From Patescibacteria group bacterium (GTDB lineage Bacteria; Patescibacteriota; Minisyncoccia; 2-02-FULL-40-12; IGHO2-01-FULL-4-A): 64,000 nt of DNA. The position numbers were made by a program. This document shows, one piece after another, positions 54,401-60,400 of this stretch. Position 1 is the stretch's first letter, and each line of letters opens with the position of its first letter. The stretch covers positions 6,502 through 70,501 of the forward strand of contig JBBTUB010000013.1 of the NCBI GenBank assembly GCA_038064015.1, written 5' to 3'.

Positions 54401-57400
54401 AGTTTTTGAACAATATTTTTTCCAAGAAATCCCCCGCCTCCAGTCACAAGAATTTTCTTATTTAGCAAATACATCAAGAATTGTTTTTATATCTTTTTGC
54501 GAAAGTTCGGGATCACAGCTCAGATAGAGACCTTGCCGATGTACGATCTGCGCATTGGGAAGTTCGACGGGTACTTCGCCATGTTTTCTATAGAATGGCT
54601 GTTCGGTGATATCACCCCCAACAATAGGGCGGATTTCTACCTTGCCCTTTGCCTGCTTGATTAATTTTTCCAATATTTTCTTTGATCGGCACACCAAAGG
54701 TACTGAAAATGCGGAAATAAAATCGATGTGATCGTAGCGGAGTGGAATATACTTCTCGGTATTCGCATACAATACCTTCGCCATCTGTAAAAAGTTTTTG
54801 TTGCGTTTCTTTGCTATTTCTGGGAAATACTTCAGTTGTAGGTTTCCCAGAAATCCTTGAATCTCCGTCGGGCGGAGATTGTAACCTAACTCATAAAAGG
54901 TGAATCGACTGTAAAAATGATTGACACGATGTTGTTTTCGCAAGGCAACCTGTTCTTTACTTGGGATACTACGATCCCATCCATGTGCTCGCACCATGCG
55001 TAGCATGGAGGAAAACTTTGGATCATCTGTGCATATTGCACCGCCCTCAATCGTTGAGAGGTGATGTCCTACAAAAAAAGAGAACGTGCTTGCGTAGCTG
55101 TAATTTCCTAGACGTTTGCCCCGATACACGGTGCCAAGTCCCTCACAGTTATCTTCGATGAGCAGAATCTTATGCTTTTTGCAGAGTTGTTCGATCTTGT
55201 CTAGGTCATCGCAAAAGCCCAGTAGATTTGTCAGAAAAATCGCTTGGAGTGAATGCTTCACGAGAACTTTTTTTAGTTGCGCACTCGACACGTTCAGTGT
55301 GTTAAGCTCGACGTCAATAGGCACCGGTTTTAGGCCTAGCTGCATAAGCGGCATGACATTGGTTGCCCATGTGACTGCGGAGAATCCAACGCTATCTCCG
55401 CGTTTCAGCTTGCCCATGTTCATAAGTGCCTGAATCAGTCCAAGATTAGCACTGCTGCCGCTATGAAAAAAAATAGAATCTCTCCTTCCCTGATATTTTG
55501 CGAATTGCCGTTCAAACGATTCGACAACGTCGCCACAGCTGAATCGCTTGGCTGAACGAATAAAGCGGATCAAGGCCTCCTTGGTTTCTTGCTCGCGATA
55601 AAATGACGATTCTATAAGCTTGATCATATGCGTTTTTCTGTGTTTACCTTTCCATGGTCGATGGTGAGTTCAAAATCTGAGATATCGGTTAAGCCCGTTC
55701 CGTGCCCAATAGTAATGATGGTTATCGTGCCACGGTGCTTTTGCAATGCTTCGATAATGAGTCCTTCCGATTCCTTGTCCAGTGCGCTGGTTGGTTCATC
55801 GAGAACCAACATCTGTGGCTTCCGGACAAGTGCGCGCGCAAGCGCTATACGCTGACGTTGTCCGCCCGAGAGCTGCAATCCGCGTTCGCCGACTTGCGTT
55901 TCAAATTTTTCCGGCAATGCCATAATCGTGTCGTAGATGTTCGCCATTTTTGCGGCCGTTTCTATTTCCTGCAGCGAAAGCGTTTCGTTGAAATAACGTA
56001 TATTTTCGGAGATGGTTCCATTGATCAGAAATACTTCTTGAGGAACATATGCGATATTCTTTCGCCATTCCGCAAGGCTAATGTCACGTGCGGGGATTCC
56101 ATCTAAGGCAATCAATCCATCGGTCGGCTCCAAAAGGCGCAGGGTCAGGTCCGCAAAAGTGGATTTTCCCATGCCTGAGGGACCCGTAACAGCGACGACA
56201 GCTCCTCGGGGGATAGCTATATTAATATTGCGAAGCACTGATTCGCGGTCCCGATAGGCGAAGGTGACGTCTTTGAACGAAAGTTCGTGTGCAAAATGGA
56301 ATGACTGTTTTCCTCCTTCATCCTCCCGGTTGCTCACAATTTCGTTTCGGTAGCGGAGTGTCGTTTCAAAATAAGGGATAAGCCCTGACATGGATTGTGC
56401 TTGGCCTTGAAGCGACTGAAAGAAAGAAAACATTTTTTGGATCAAATACACGACGATGGCAAACGCAGCGATGTCAAACGATGGCTGCTTGTAGGTCACG
56501 AAAAACAGTATTGCTATGAATAGAATACCAACCGGTTCAGTAATGCTTCCTGAGAAATAGTTGTACAAAGCCGCTCGGGTATGCGCGTTGCGCATTTTAT
56601 GAAAGTACATACGTGCTTGTTCTGAGAGCGCCGATTCAATCCCAAAAGCTTTTGCCACCTTTGCTCCGATGATATGCTCGGAAATGTAATGGCTTGCGTC
56701 GCGGTAGGTCTGACCAATGGAAGTCGCAATTTTGCGCGTTCGATGCAAGATGGGTTTTATCGTCCAAAACAGTACGATACCGAGGCCGAGGGTAATAAGT
56801 GTGATACCTGCGGAGATATTGAATGCAACCAACGCATAGGTCAAAATGCTCGTCGCCAAGAGCGCGCTCGTATTGATTTGCGAAATAATATTGGCACTTT
56901 GTCGGACGTCAAACAGTAACATGCGTTCCAAATAGCCCACCTTTTGTCCCATAAGAAAGCTCCAGCGTGTCGCCAACGTACGGCGGTACAGGTCGTTGCA
57001 GAGTTTTTCTTCAAAATCTGCAGTCGTACGATCGCTCAAGTATTTGGCGGAGAATTGAACACCTGCCTTGCAGAAAAAAAGTAAGACGATGAACCCCAGA
57101 AGATACGCGGGACCGAAGGGAATATGGAAGAAACGAAACAGCCCCTGAATTGTATCGGTGATAACATTGGCTTCTTTGATCGGTTGATCGGTGAGGAGTG
57201 CGAAGAGCGGTATCGCAGTACCAACACCGATACTGCCCGAAAAGCCGGCCAGCAACCCCAAACATATCGTGAGCGCAAGTTTCCCGTAGTAGCCGCGCAA
57301 TGCTATACGAAGCACTCGTCCCGCCCGCCAGAGTTTTTCTTTTTGTAGTGCCATAGTTACTTAAGATGATACAGAAAAATTGATCTTCCCACTACTGCCG

Positions 57401-60400
57401 TAGGTGCGTGTGAGTACAGCCATGCGTATTTGGAATTAGATTTATTCATGAGGGTTGTCGCGGAAACCGCGATCCAGCCGTCGCTGGTATTGTTGGCGAG
57501 AAAATCCTCTTCGTTCTGGTATGTTTTTGCACCAAGACTCACAAACCGCTCGCCGAGATAGTAGGAGGGATCTGCCCATCCAAAATAGTCGAATTCGATC
57601 CTACGGATGTTGTTTTCTCTGACCCACGCTCCCAACCGCTTAAGATCCTGTCCCCAATCCAGGTTGGAGTCTACAACGTACCGATGCCCTCCCGATGATC
57701 CTCCAACAAGTTGGTTGAAGTAGGTAAGGTAGTGGGGAAAAACAAAAATATTTTCCAAAACATACCAAACCAGCAACGCGTACACGACCAGTTTTAGTTT
57801 AGTTATTTTTATAATTTGTCCGGATATGAGGATTATCATAAACGGGTAGATCGGCAAAAGATGCCGGATACCCACATTGAGCGCGCCCTTGAGGCTTGTG
57901 GCCCAGTATATCGCAAGCCACAAGAGCATGATCGTGATATCAGGGTGATTGCGAAGCGACTCAATGATTTTAAATTTTGATGTTGTATTTTTGATCGTGG
58001 TAATAATCGCGATTATTACCAACCCCCACCACGCGAGGGGTTCTTTGACAAGGTAAACGAAAGGGAAATAGGCTGGCCCGGCACCCTGACTCACTTTGCC
58101 AAGGAAGAATACGTTGGTGCCTCCCTTCCAGCGCTGACTGACCTTGAACAGACCCAGGCCATACTGTCCGGCCGCGCGGAGAATCGGTTTGTCGGAAAGC
58201 CAAATAATTGGTTTCGCGTACGCGAAGTGGTTAGATGACTGTAATTGGTCGAAAGTATCAGCACGCTGCCGCTCTGGTGGATAGTTGCGGACATGCAGAT
58301 AATATAGCGGCCAGACCACTACGACAAAACCAACCACCATCAGGAGAATGGTTGAGGCTATCTTTTTGTAGTTCCAGATCAGCGCAGTAAGCAGAAACAG
58401 AGGTACCAGCATGGCGGTTGAAAACTTGCATAACAACGCGATGCCAAAAAAAATACTTGCGAACCAGAAATTACGCCTCATAGGTTGCTGGAGGTATTGC
58501 ACAAAAAAATAAGCCGCCGAGAGCACGCCAAACAGCGCCGCCATGTCGGTCGTTGCAAAATGCGCATTAGCGAGGATGGTGGGCGAAAAGGAAAAGAGAA
58601 ACACCGCAAAGAGCGCAACGCGATCGCCATACAGTTTTTTCGCCCACTTCCAGAGTATCCATGCCGAAAGCGCAAAAAATAACAGCATTGGTAGGTGGGC
58701 AAGACGTCCGATGAGATCCGCATCATTTCCCGACTGGTAGATCAGTTGGCGCCCGAATTTCCACTGGTCGTTGATATTAGTAGTCCAGCGTGGCGACTGG
58801 AAGGCATCTTGATTAAGTTTTACGAAAAGCAGCGGGATGGCTGCCAGATCTTTTACCAGTGGCGGGTGTTCAGCATTGATCCGCATATCTCCCTTTACGA
58901 GATAGGAATAGCCAGCGCCAATGTGCGATATTTCATCGATGATCAGAGAATTATTCCACGAACTGGTATAACTTAAAACGCTACCAATGAACACGAAAAT
59001 GACGGCAAAATAGCGAGAATACTTGGGAAGCATAATTAAGTATTTCATCATAGCATAGGAGTAGCCACTATGCTAGAATTGACCTACATGAACAACAAAC
59101 CATTTACATCGCAAGAGTATCAAGAGATATATTCCAAGGTTCCTAGGCTGTGCGTGGCGGTTGTGATAAAAACTGAAGAGGGTGTTGTCTTTATATTGAG
59201 ACAACTGCCATCTTGGCATGGTCAATGGCATTTGCCGGGTGGTACGGTGTTGTATGGAGAAAGGGTTCAGGACGCCGTCCGGCGTTTTGCGCGCAACGAG
59301 GCAGGCGTGGATATTGCCGTGGGCGATCTTATGGGATATATCGAATACCCGAGCGAAGTAAAAGAAGTGGGATTCGGCACCACGATCGCTCTGGTATTTT
59401 CATCGACGATTACCGGAGGGGAATTGAAAGTAAATGAGGATTCTTCCGAGATAAAAATATTTCGCGAGCTGCCGAATCCCATGATTGCGGAGGAGAAAGA
59501 TTTTTTAAAAACCCGGATATGAAACGGGTATTCATACTCCTCCTGCTTCTTGCGTTGATCGGTGGAGGAATTGGTGTTTTTAGCAAAATCGCCTTGCGCG
59601 AAATTCCACCATTCAGTTTTACCGCATTGCGGTTTTTCCTCGCAACGCTTGTGCTGCTGGTATGGAATTTTCGAAGTCGCTCTGACCGCCCGGCAACGTA
59701 TCCGCGGGCGGCGTATACTATTCCTTTATTTTTGACCGGCAATATCGTGCTATTTGCATTCGGTATCCGATGGACCGGTGCGACCACGTCCCAAATCATG
59801 TATACTGCTGCGCCGATTATCATCGCCTTGTTTTCCTGGCGACTCTTGCATCAGCGCATAACCGGTAGGGTGGCATGTGGAATTCTCATCGGCCTCACGG
59901 GTGTATTGATCGCCATGGTACCTGGCGGTACTGGGACAACAGTATCCATTTTCGGCCCCATCCTCATTGGCGGCGCCATAATTTCTTTTGCCCTCTATTC
60001 GGTGTTTTCAAAACAATACCTGAACCATATCGCTCCCCAAGATATTATTTTTATATTTTCATGGATGACCACTTTGGTCTCGGCCGTGCTTGCCATTTCG
60101 GATTTTTGGCGGTATCCGCACTGGTGGGATCAGGTGTCATTTGAAGCGATTGCCTGGCTTTTCGTGGTGGGAATTTTGGGAACCGCTTTGTTTTATGTAC
60201 TCCACCAGTTCATAGTTCAAAAGGCATCGCCTACCGTAGCATCCATGATGCTTATGCTTCAGCCGGCCATGACATTTTTGTGGGCATCGCTTCTCTTGGG
60301 CGAGCGCATGACGCTTGCTCTTTTTCTGGGCATGATCCTTACGATCTTTGGCGCCTGGCTGGTAACCTTGGATTCTCGCTCTTTTCTTGCTATACTGGCC

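Follow-up and report, generated by a model that had tools for sequence, protein, structure and literature searches.

The gene at 57357-59051 of the analysed 64,000-nt stretch of DNA (hereafter the window: Patescibacteria group bacterium, GCA_038064015.1, contig JBBTUB010000013.1, positions 6,502-70,501) encodes a membrane glycosyltransferase of the GT-C fold and is a member of a huge, uncharacterised family of Patescibacteria (candidate phyla radiation, CPR). Judging by its conserved residues, the enzyme looks catalytically intact, and apparently it moves a lipid-carried sugar to a target on the cell surface. Our tentative reading is that it acts as the outer-face transferase of a three-component-type transmembrane glycosylation pathway, the acceptor being a cell-wall-associated or island-encoded glycan. 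The original prediction was a lipid-linked protein O-glycosylation toolkit: the window does encode the kinds of enzyme used in a lipid-linked glycosylation route outside the cytoplasm, whereas the protein acceptor did not receive comparable support.

The GT-C enzyme and its family

The product matches Pfam PMT_2 (4.5e-15, 56.7 bits, cutoff 26.1) with twice the score of its match to PMT (1.9e-6, 28.1, cutoff 22.7). The latter is confined to the core, residues 119-231, and neither PMT_4TMC nor MIR domains were found by Pfam search. The AlphaFold model (pLDDT 89.5) has the GT-C fold. The predicted topology, with 11 TM helices and N-in/C-out orientation, obeys the positive-inside rule, and a 125-aa extracytoplasmic alpha/beta domain closes the protein. 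Fold searches place it roughly equidistant from ALG12, ArnT, Pmt4 and STT3. A PDB sequence search gave no match, and no sequence similarity to solved GT-Cs was detectable.

The loop-1 pair noted in the original prediction, D39 and E40 (EL1), lies on the outer face and is invariant among 37 homologs. Other conserved outer-face residues are R57/H62/K67 in EL1, D169 (EL2), K209 (EL3) and R396-H397 before TM10; in the C-terminal domain, D461-S-N-x-D-W-G-Q468 and Y489-F-G-W492 are conserved. Compared with published motifs (PMC7801869), the clan-wide catalytic and donor-phosphate-binding positions are all invariant and face outwards. The loop-1 pair is common to ArnT (D55/E56) and Pmt1 (D77/E78) (PMC7801869) and thus does not indicate the type of acceptor; the same applies to D169, K209 and R396, which are clan-wide features. 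The window protein departs from the conserved EL2 motif (H162N, R164H), and so its specificity may be unlike that of the rest of the family.

The family comprises more than 5,600 clusters at 90% identity. Pfam PMT is also matched by 33 of 37 members, and STT3 by none of the 37, even at E<=1. The C-terminal outer domain (DSNxDWGQ / YFGWAD) is family-specific. C-terminal TPR repeats occur in two of eight longer members, as in the TMTC protein O-mannosyltransferases, which favours a protein acceptor. The usual neighbours are ftsQ, ddl, alr, murI, femAB, Mur ligase and PBP2 genes and a second GT-C paralog, and a glycan island is not the normal setting. The ftsQ and GT-C genes are convergent and not co-transcribed, so that the two may be neighbours through inheritance alone, with no functional significance. 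Among 83 related loci, GtrA is encoded within 8 kb of the GT-C gene in 19 and a GT2a ortholog (see Table 1) in five. ABC, EamA and NUDIX partners adjoin it in 0-1 of the 83; being peculiar to the window, they carry little information on the conserved function of the family.

Candidate donor synthases and flippases

All open reading frames named in the original prediction were confirmed at their coordinates (Table 1). The GT-C gene is the first of an operon with an ABC exporter and sugar-nucleotide enzymes, within a glycan island of about 40 kb, and is translationally coupled to the exporter gene. The best NCBIfam matches of the exporter are HepA (1.5e-82), MsbA and PglK, all under the equivalog cutoffs, and it may flip or export a lipid-linked glycan. 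The product of the last gene had no match in a Pfam search, and its NanM-type match is under the cutoff. In the divergent operon, the EamA protein shares its Pfam family with E. coli ArnE, a subunit of the Und-P-Ara4N flippase, and a flippase role for it is speculative. The GT2-like protein of this operon falls outside the DPM1/ArnC subtype, and no PDB relative of it was found. Neither GtrA nor Wzx was found in the window, which leaves the ABC exporter and the EamA protein as sole flippase candidates there.

Table 1. Features of the window discussed in the text
Feature	Coordinates	Strand	Remarks
Membrane-anchored protein with Ser/Thr/Pro-rich linker	4177..5385	+	402 aa
GT2a, soluble ALG5/DPM1-like polyprenyl-phosphate hexosyltransferase	6833..7555	+	240 aa
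GalT-like (galactose-1-phosphate uridylyltransferase family)	7539..8492	+	conserved GT2a operon partner
WbaP/WcaJ-type polyprenyl-phosphate hexose-1-phosphate transferase	11767..13152	+	initiates Und-PP-linked glycan
Ala/Thr/Gly/Ser-rich surface protein	20845..24558	+	1237 aa, N-terminal anchor
GT2b, soluble AglJ/ArnC/DPMS-like GT2	28374..29051	+	225 aa, in GT4 operon of the glycan island
Putative sugar O-methyltransferase	52536..53558	-	final gene of GT-C operon; weak NanM-type match (1.9e-8)
Fcl-like (GDP-L-fucose synthase-like) NAD(P)-dependent epimerase/reductase	53542..54474	-	GT-C operon
DegT/RfbH/PseC-like PLP sugar aminotransferase or dehydrase	54458..55627	-	4-nt overlap with ABC gene
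Fused TMD-NBD ABC exporter	55624..57354	-	576 aa, 2 nt past GT-C stop
GT-C glycosyltransferase, PMT_2/PMT clan	57357..59051	-	564 aa, ~11 TM and C-terminal domain
NUDIX hydrolase	59070..59522	+	opens divergent operon, 18 bp from GT-C start codon
EamA/DMT-family membrane protein	59519..60418	+	10 TM, divergent operon
Divergent GT2-like protein	60415..61221	+	268 aa, weak Glycos_transf_2 match
DegT (PseC/ArnB/WecE-like) sugar aminotransferase	61218..62309	+	divergent operon

GT2a and GT2b were correctly described as soluble: each matches Glycos_transf_2 at about 1e-29, and neither has a hydrophobic segment. Their description as DPM1/Ppm1-like holds insofar as the closest solved relatives are polyprenyl-phosphate glycosyltransferases, namely the DPMS of P. 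furiosus (5mlz; 3.8e-15 for GT2a, 3.1e-13 for GT2b), ArnC and GtrB; however, the name Ppm1 over-specifies the sugar. GT2a is 59-83% identical across Patescibacteria, carries the name dolichyl-phosphate beta-glucosyltransferase in NCBI and JGI annotation, and recurs in an operon with the GalT-like gene in distant genomes. The GalT-like product would supply or interconvert UDP-hexose, and GT2a is likely a housekeeping donor-maker. The ALG5-like naming and the GalT operon point to glucose or galactose as the donor sugar, not to the mannose of the actinobacterial Ppm1/Pmt pairing. Neither GT2 shares an operon with the GT-C gene, the distances being 28-50 kb. A third, better DPMS-like GT2 is encoded just beyond the window edge.

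Under the three-component reading, a soluble ALG5/DPM1/ArnC-like GT2 would transfer one hexose from a nucleotide sugar to polyprenyl phosphate at the inner face. This would most likely be GT2a, yielding polyprenyl-P-glucose or -galactose, with GT2b or the third GT2 as possible island-specific alternatives. The lipid-linked sugar would be flipped by the ABC exporter or the EamA protein; we infer the identities of both donor and flippase, while the analysis directly shows the fold, the topology, the conserved residues, the operon structure and, as far as the clan, the family affiliation. Finally, the 11-TM GT-C enzyme would use its outer-face residues D39-E40/D169/K209/R396 to pass the sugar on to an envelope acceptor outside the cytoplasm. 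The GT-C fold, the invariant outer-face residues, the relatives of the GT2s and the GtrA genes at 19 of 83 loci argue for such a pathway.

Candidate acceptors and alternative pathways

A glycopolymer of the wall or a lipid-linked glycan of the island is slightly favoured as acceptor over Ser/Thr of proteins, including the 1237-aa protein. This preference follows from the targets of characterised monoderm PMT_2-type GT-Cs (GtlB, GttB, GtcC, CsdD, CsdF, GtsC, GacL), which are LTA, WTA and wall polysaccharides (PMC8035078), from synteny with ftsQ and peptidoglycan genes, and from the exporter and glycan-island context. Counted against it are the convergent orientation of ftsQ, the locus-peculiar partners, the PMT matches in 33 of 37 members, the TPR fusions, the distance of the GT2 genes and the H162N/R164H substitutions.

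It is also possible, though somewhat less likely, that the enzyme is a PMT-like protein O-glycosyltransferase which, by analogy with actinobacterial Ppm1/Pmt and streptococcal GtrB/PgtC2 and PgfS/PgfM1, would transfer the hexose from polyprenyl phosphate to Ser/Thr of secreted or anchored proteins. The PMT matches, the TPR fusions and the 11 TM helices, as in PMT and TMTC, are consistent with this, as is the loop-1 sequence DExPHIGAGYSY, which we take to resemble the PMT loop-1 motif. The 1237-aa protein named as candidate acceptor is indeed rich in Thr, Ser and Gly (11.8, 9.1 and 10.8%, with 11.8% Ala); it has a single N-terminal TM/signal anchor and no detected Pfam domain. It represents a family of conserved proteins of about 1200 aa from Paceibacteria-type genomes (165 hits) that shares long contigs with homologs of GT-C and GT2a. 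This makes it a possible acceptor; however, it is encoded 33 kb away, neither the usual context of the GT-C family nor that in the window ties the two together, and no result singles it out. An alternative candidate, the 402-aa protein, looks closer to typical PMT substrates: residues 61-90 of its 411-aa long-ORF form (start 4150) are a Ser/Thr/Pro linker with 47% S+T. Protein glycosylation also has precedent in monoderms, whose known substrates include FtsQ and PBP1a (PMC11092751). On the other hand, the streptococcal protein-glycosylating GT-Cs are YfhO-type rather than PMT_2 (PMC11092751), the displayed CPR FtsQ neighbours carry no Ser/Thr-rich tail, and the GT-C family is spread far more widely than that of the 1237-aa protein. 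The non-specific loop-1 pair, the stronger PMT_2 match, the lack of PMT_4TMC and MIR and the probable Glc or Gal donor also speak against a PMT-like role.

The gene content of the window suggests two further schemes. An oligosaccharyltransferase- or ligase-like enzyme would transfer en bloc to protein or wall an Und-PP glycan built by the WbaP-type transferase and GT4/GT2 enzymes and flipped by the ABC exporter. The window has the gene classes of a pgl-type locus (PGT, GT4s, GT2, DegT, dehydratase/epimerase and, directly next to the GT-C gene, an ABC half-transporter), the full-length Foldseek TM-scores for AglB (0.49) and STT3 are no lower than those of any other hit, and an invariant LDWGQ about 24 residues past the last TM helix bears a superficial likeness to WWDYG. 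We nevertheless regard this as improbable given the lack of STT3 matches in the 37 family members, the 11 rather than 13 TM helices and the ABC partnership peculiar to this locus; moreover, a more conventional en-bloc transferase, a WaaL/PglL-like Wzy_C+TPR protein, is encoded on the same contig. The other scheme is an ArnT-like lipid modification, an alternative also named in the original prediction. An (amino)sugar would be added from polyprenyl-P-sugar to the head group of a membrane lipid, with DegT, the GT2-like protein and EamA in the roles of ArnB, ArnC and ArnE/F. All four Arn classes do occur in the divergent locus 57357-62309, E. coli ArnE matches Pfam EamA, and D169/K209 parallel D158/K203 of ArnT. 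However, hhalign against E. coli ArnT gave a probability of 7%, no NCBIfam ArnT match was found for GT-C, and Patescibacteria, which are monoderm-like, are reported to lack LPS and lipid A; an ArnT-like role is therefore unlikely. No lpx genes were seen in the window, EamA is a vast transporter family, the local GT2 is not ArnC/DPM1-like, and the Arn-class partners are missing from the 83 related loci.

Comparison with known systems

The Campylobacter Pgl system (PglC, PglA/H/I/J, PglE/F, PglK, PglB) shares with the window its co-located gene classes and an ABC half-transporter beside the GT-C gene. However, the window enzyme lacks an STT3 or WWDYG signature, and its family normally resides outside such loci. 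ArnT (GT83) has the same EL1 D-E, D(EL2)-K(EL3) pair and C-terminal outer alpha/beta domain, and DegT, GT2 and EamA-family genes recall the Arn pathway; but ArnT has 13 TM helices, not about 11, the neighbouring GT2 is not ArnC-like, and the lineage is not expected to make lipid A.

The Ppm1/Pmt and PMT/TMTC enzymes (GT39 and relatives) resemble the window enzyme in their GT-C(A) fold, about 11 TM helices and invariant loop-1 D-E. PMT matches in most family members and TPR repeats in a few link the family to PMT and TMTC, and a polyprenyl-P-sugar donor from a DPM1-like GT2 is common to Ppm1/Pmt. The differences are the ALG5-like, GalT-linked donor-maker (Glc/Gal versus Man), the additional C-terminal domain and the core-only PMT match. 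A short GT2 also cooperates with a GT-C in mycobacterial PpgS/Rv3632/Rv3779 (GalN on arabinogalactan) and haloarchaeal AglD/AglR/AglS, where the GT-C decorates a preformed wall polysaccharide or protein-linked glycan with a single sugar from the polyprenyl-P donor. Here the GT2s alone were compared: GT2a and GT2b give partial matches to the NCBIfam models for PpgS and Dol-P-hexose transferases, all far under the equivalog cutoffs.

The Gram-positive three-component systems CsbB/GtcA/YfhO, GtlA/GtcA/GtlB, CsdAB/CD/EF with CflA, and GacI-GacJ/GacK/GacL (PMC8035078) differ from the window in that its GT2 and GT-C genes are 28-50 kb apart and its GT-C has the DSNxDWGQ / YFGWAD domain. GtrA, absent from the window, lies near the GT-C gene at the 19 CPR loci, recalling these systems. 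The TM-less GT2s have a precedent in GacI, a soluble GT-A with the membrane partner GacJ (PMC8035078). In the Gram-positive systems, as in the pathway proposed here, a GT-A (GT2) makes a C55-P-monosaccharide and a GT-C transfers the sugar outside the membrane, and many of these GT-Cs carry PMT_2, as does the window enzyme.

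Membership of the GT-C protein in the PMT/PMT_2 clan

The original prediction had placed in the window a membrane glycosyltransferase (hereafter GT-C) and two short glycosyltransferases of family 2 (GT2a and GT2b). All three open reading frames were found at the predicted positions. The GT-C protein matches the Pfam families PMT_2 (PF13231; 4.5e-15, 56.7 bits with a cutoff of 26.1) and PMT (PF02366; 1.9e-6, 28.1 bits, above the curated cutoff), the latter match spanning only profile positions 90-205 of 245. An AlphaFold2 model built with 37 homologs as input has a pLDDT of 89.5 and a pTM of 0.90, and a Foldseek search with this model returned 36 GT-C entries at probability 1.00. 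The modelled product clearly has the GT-C fold. It shows the features that define the superfamily, namely a multi-TM fold, a conserved N-terminal module and a long first outer loop with the catalytic Asp. A topology of 11 TM helices with the N-terminus inside and the C-terminus outside fits the model helices, the hydropathy and the distribution of Lys and Arg. The predicted outer face comprises the first loop (89 residues), the TM7-TM8 loop (73 residues) and a C-terminal alpha/beta domain (125 residues).

The DE motif in loop 1, noted in the original prediction, is real: D39-E40 lies in the first outer loop and is invariant in 37 sequences, as are D169, K209 and R396. Positions common to ArnT, PMT, OST and TMTC enzymes have been listed (PMC7801869). 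By position in the topology, not by superposition, D39-E40 (EL1) would be the catalytic or acceptor-binding pair, and R57, H62 and K67 in the same loop the contacts to the donor phosphate or sugar. By the same positional comparison, D169 (start of TM4) and K209 (after TM5) match the D158-K203 pair of ArnT, and R396-H397 directly before TM10 matches the donor-phosphate arginine. The combination of an Arg before TM10 with a D(EL2)/K(EL3) pair is a superfamily feature, as in ArnT and TMTC. Because the invariant residues occupy clan-wide positions on the outer face, GT-C is very probably active, with a lipid-phosphate-linked sugar as the predicted donor. The C-terminal domain has invariant motifs of its own, D461-S-N-x-D-W-G-Q468 and Y489-F-G-W492.

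The window GT-C is identical to a protein in the Patescibacteria MAG GCA_964362975.1. It matches more than 5,600 clusters at 90% identity; the best 120 of these share 47-60% identity along their full length, and all taxon-named ones among them are from Patescibacteria. The homologs carry the NCBI name "glycosyltransferase family 39 protein". A genome scan yielded 592 relatives, and the 80 that were kept come from many Parcubacteria and Paceibacteria lineages. The profile of the C-terminal domain matched 9,333 representatives at 50% identity (4,946 with E<=1e-10), and this signature domain almost always forms the C-terminus of a protein of 540-650 aa.

PMT_2 was found in all 37 family members and PMT in 33 of them, and no member matched STT3, PMT_4TMC or MIR in Pfam even at E<=1. 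Searches of all PDB chains with GT-C (phmmer) and with the 37-sequence profile gave no match at E<=10, and the only NCBIfam matches were Agl23 and LA_3751 at E~0.004; no characterised relative could be assigned by sequence. Orthology to ArnT was likewise rejected: ArnT was absent from the NCBIfam matches, its structures 5ezm and 5f15 had no match in the PDB search, and hhalign against E. coli ArnT gave a probability of 7.3% (E 0.005), covering the PMT_2 core only. Our literature search found no publication specific to this family of the CPR. Since no sequence relative was found among solved structures, the hhalign probability against ArnT is about 7%, and STT3, PMT_4TMC and MIR are missing from all 37 members, the family forms, on sequence grounds, a separate branch of the PMT/PMT_2 clan that is so far uncharacterised and belongs neither with the ArnT orthologs nor with the canonical Pmt enzymes.

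Within the alignment the window copy is the most divergent sequence by mean identity, and it differs at 7 of the 132 conserved columns. Two of the substitutions, H162N and R164H, fall in the outer-loop motif AHxRFxTTD, otherwise at least 95% conserved and located right before D169. These substitutions and the divergence may reflect altered acceptor specificity after a move into the glycan island described below; this is weak evidence, because the alignment was picked by similarity to the window copy itself.

Donor synthesis and the glycan island

Features of the window considered here
Feature	Positions	Strand	Length (aa)
Anchored protein between secY and adk	4177-5385	+	402
GT2a	6833-7555	+	240
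Operon GT2a, GalT-like, TIM, PGK	6833-10292		
WbaP-type initiating transferase	11767-13152		
Separate small glycan module	11767-16888		
Ala/Thr/Gly/Ser-rich surface protein	20845-24558	+	1237
Glycan island (~40 kb)	~24650 to beyond 64000		
GT2b	28374-29051	+	225
Sugar C-methyltransferase	35184-36578		
Duplicated GDSL/SxtJ/DUF5989-type genes	45392-50915		
Carbamoyltransferase	46542-48359		
GT-C	57357-59051	-	564
Sugar C-methyltransferase	62294-63556		

GT2a and GT2b each match Glycos_transf_2 in Pfam at about 1e-29, and no hydrophobic or TM segment was seen in either. Their best PDB relatives are the Dol-P-Man synthase of P. furiosus (5mlz), ArnC and GtrB (sll0501), so that their GT2 domains are nearest to known polyprenyl-phosphate glycosyltransferases of the DPM1/ALG5/GtrB/ArnC type. 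The NCBIfam matches (AglJ, PgfS, ArnC, PpgS, Dol-P hexose transferase) are all under the equivalog cutoffs. Synthases of this type associate with the membrane by C-terminal TM helices or a dedicated partner protein; no such partner was identified for GT2a or GT2b. Soluble GT2s with a membrane partner exist, for example GacI/GacJ (PMC8035078).

The GT2a family is highly conserved in Patescibacteria (6,218 matches, the best 120 at 59-83% identity) and is named "dolichyl-phosphate beta-glucosyltransferase" by NCBI and JGI. The operon of the ALG5-like GT2a gene with GalT-like, TIM and PGK genes is the same in two distant Patescibacteria genomes and ties a polyprenyl-phosphate-hexose synthase to central sugar metabolism. 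The family name and the conserved GalT-like operon partner favour UDP-Glc or UDP-Gal as the substrate of GT2a, which would make polyprenyl-phosphate-glucose or -galactose, not the mannose donor. Two soluble DPM1/Ppm1-like enzymes had been proposed; the lack of TM segments and the kinship with polyprenyl-phosphate glycosyltransferases are borne out, and mannose is not favoured, since GT2a points to Glc or Gal. Orthologs of GT2a occur within 8 kb of GT-C in 5 of 83 loci of GT-C relatives. GT2b shares 29% identity with E. coli ArnC (5e-20) and 30% with GT2a; being embedded among GT4 genes, it may serve the island.

GT-C heads a minus-strand operon whose genes overlap or lie no more than 2 nt apart, and it is followed by a fused TMD-NBD ABC exporter (best NCBIfam matches HepA, 1.5e-82, MsbA and PglK), a DegT/RfbH-like protein, an Fcl-like reductase and a putative sugar O-methyltransferase. 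A divergent operon starts 18 bp upstream of GT-C and encodes NUDIX, EamA, GT2-like and DegT proteins with 4-nt overlaps. The ABC, EamA, NUDIX and GT2-like partners recur in none or one of the 83 related loci. An Arn-like local set of four genes was considered and given low probability: ArnE matches EamA, but the neighbouring GT2 is not of the ArnC kind, and these partners do not accompany GT-C in the 83 related loci. A scan of 51.5-62.8 kb for promoters and terminators was uninformative, as the counts were at the level of shuffled sequence.

Both operons lie in the glycan island, which contains at least seven GT4s, several GT2s, several SAM methyltransferases, two DegT genes and two epimerases, together with the methyl- and carbamoyltransferases and duplicated genes of the table. 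This content suggests a heavily modified surface glycan with amino, C-methyl, O-methyl and carbamoyl groups. No second GT-C paralog, GtrA, Wzx or Wzy was found within the window, GtrA being sought with a profile from 19 CPR neighbours and Wzx judged by multi-TM ORFs; within the window, only the ABC exporter and the EamA protein qualify as flippase candidates. Upstream of lepA, the separate module at 11767-16888 combines the WbaP-type phosphoglycosyl transferase with a GT4 and a DUF4012 protein of 879 aa that has a single TM segment.

About 7-9 kb past the 3' end of the window, the same contig encodes an 819-aa Wzy_C + TPR protein (WaaL/PglL-like ligase or polymerase) and, co-oriented with it, a third short soluble GT2, the strongest match to Dol-P-Man synthase on the contig (5mlz, 1e-32). 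For the transfer of a glycan en bloc this pair is a more conventional candidate, and the third GT2 is a nearer candidate donor-maker for GT-C.

Conserved neighbourhood and possible acceptors

ORFs were called and clustered in 83 related GT-C loci. In 70 of these an FtsQ-type POTRA protein is encoded convergently after GT-C; ftsQ is not beside GT-C in the window. A second PMT_2 paralog of about 510 aa (PPGLYPDEAMNGNNA) lies directly upstream on the same strand in 39 loci, and as the two genes often overlap, a heteromeric pair is suggested. Seryl-tRNA synthetase (54 loci), FemAB (20), GtrA (19) and Mur ligase (18) are further neighbours, and look-ups of individual loci added Ddl, Alr, MurI, PBP2 and MreC. 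The closest relatives of GT-C, at 60% identity, have the same neighbourhood as the rest of the family. Parcubacteria keep the order PMT_2 paralog, GT-C, convergent ftsQ, flanked by ddl, alr, murI, femAB, DegT and serS. With such neighbours, from ftsQ and the Mur, Ddl, Alr and MurI genes to FemAB, PBP2 and MreC, the GT-C family is a housekeeping one in a cell-wall and division context.

The 1237-aa surface protein, the acceptor originally proposed, has the composition claimed and a single N-terminal anchor. Its family (about 1200 aa, 165 matches, 40-70% identity) has no Pfam domain, and PG_binding_1 (PF01471) occurs in a few homologs; it is possibly an S-layer or wall-associated protein of Paceibacteria. 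The family shares long contigs with GT-C and GT2a homologs and is therefore a possible acceptor. It is far rarer than GT-C and shows no linkage to it, and a connection of the two is speculative. The 402-aa protein has an N-terminal TM anchor, no Pfam domain and, after the anchor, a Ser/Thr/Pro-rich linker, VESVTPTPPASMSVSLTPEATTTPTTVTQS, with 47% S+T; of the two proteins it is the one that more closely resembles a classical O-glycosylation substrate.

We slightly prefer, as a tentative choice, a wall or island glycan as the acceptor of GT-C. Every characterised monoderm GT-C of the PMT_2 type adds its sugar to LTA, WTA or a wall polysaccharide (PMC8035078, Table 2). Synteny also links the family to peptidoglycan genes, and the window copy is coupled to an exporter inside a glycan island. 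Transfer to protein Ser/Thr is a rather doubtful second choice. It agrees with the PMT match of most members, with the 11 TM helices as in PMT and TMTC, and with the C-terminal TPR repeats in two of the eight longer members, as in TMTCs. Pairs of GT2 and GT-C in monoderms O-glycosylate FtsQ, PBP1a and PrsA; however, the GT-Cs of these pairs are YfhO-type (PMC11092751). An OST-like en-bloc transfer by GT-C is improbable, STT3 being missing from all 37 members. About as improbable is the modification of a lipid. The ArnT-like alternative of the original prediction is unlikely for want of ArnT orthology, and no lpx genes were seen within the 64-kb window; LPS is reportedly missing from Patescibacteria.

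The original observation is thus confirmed and its interpretation supported in part. The toolkit of the window is a standard lipid-linked glycosylation set-up; the reading "Ppm1 plus Pmt" went beyond the evidence as to the sugar, which is probably Glc or Gal, the identity with Pmt and the acceptor. A wider and unlikely conjecture is that GT-C and the upstream paralog form a Patescibacteria-wide, Pmt1/Pmt2-like heteromer, fed by the GT2a-GalT module and glucosylating a core envelope component in wall growth or division. The target would then be peptidoglycan itself or lipid II; proteins of the divisome and PG synthases, for example the neighbouring FtsQ, are the other option. Recognition of the acceptor would fall to the family-specific DSNxDWGQ domain, and the window copy would be a recruit into a strain-specific glycan island. 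Such an envelope modification, if true, would be peculiar to Patescibacteria.

Comparison with known glycosylation systems

The GT-C flagged in the window is not a one-off but belongs to a very large, well-conserved, uncharacterised family with a usual paralog partner and wall and division neighbours, accompanied by a similarly conserved module of ALG5-like GT2 and GalT. Patescibacteria depend on surface contact with their hosts, and we know of almost no experimental work on the CPR cell envelope. The function of GT-C, if established, would define a conserved step of surface glycosylation in these bacteria.

Pmt enzymes (GT39) likewise have D-E in loop 1. This feature does not discriminate Pmt, because D55/E56 of ArnT is the same pair (PMC7801869). 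Pmt proteins have a full-length PMT domain and PMT_4TMC, with MIR in eukaryotes, whereas GT-C has a partial PMT match and neither of the other domains. The enzymes STT3, AglB and PglB are distinguished by the STT3 domain, the WWDYG motif and 13 TM helices, a combination that GT-C lacks. Three-component systems encode a dedicated GtrA- or Wzx-type flippase alongside, unlike the window. The eukaryotic TMTC O-mannosyltransferases carry C-terminal TPR repeats, and so do two of the eight longer GT-C family members, in which the repeats follow the signature domain.
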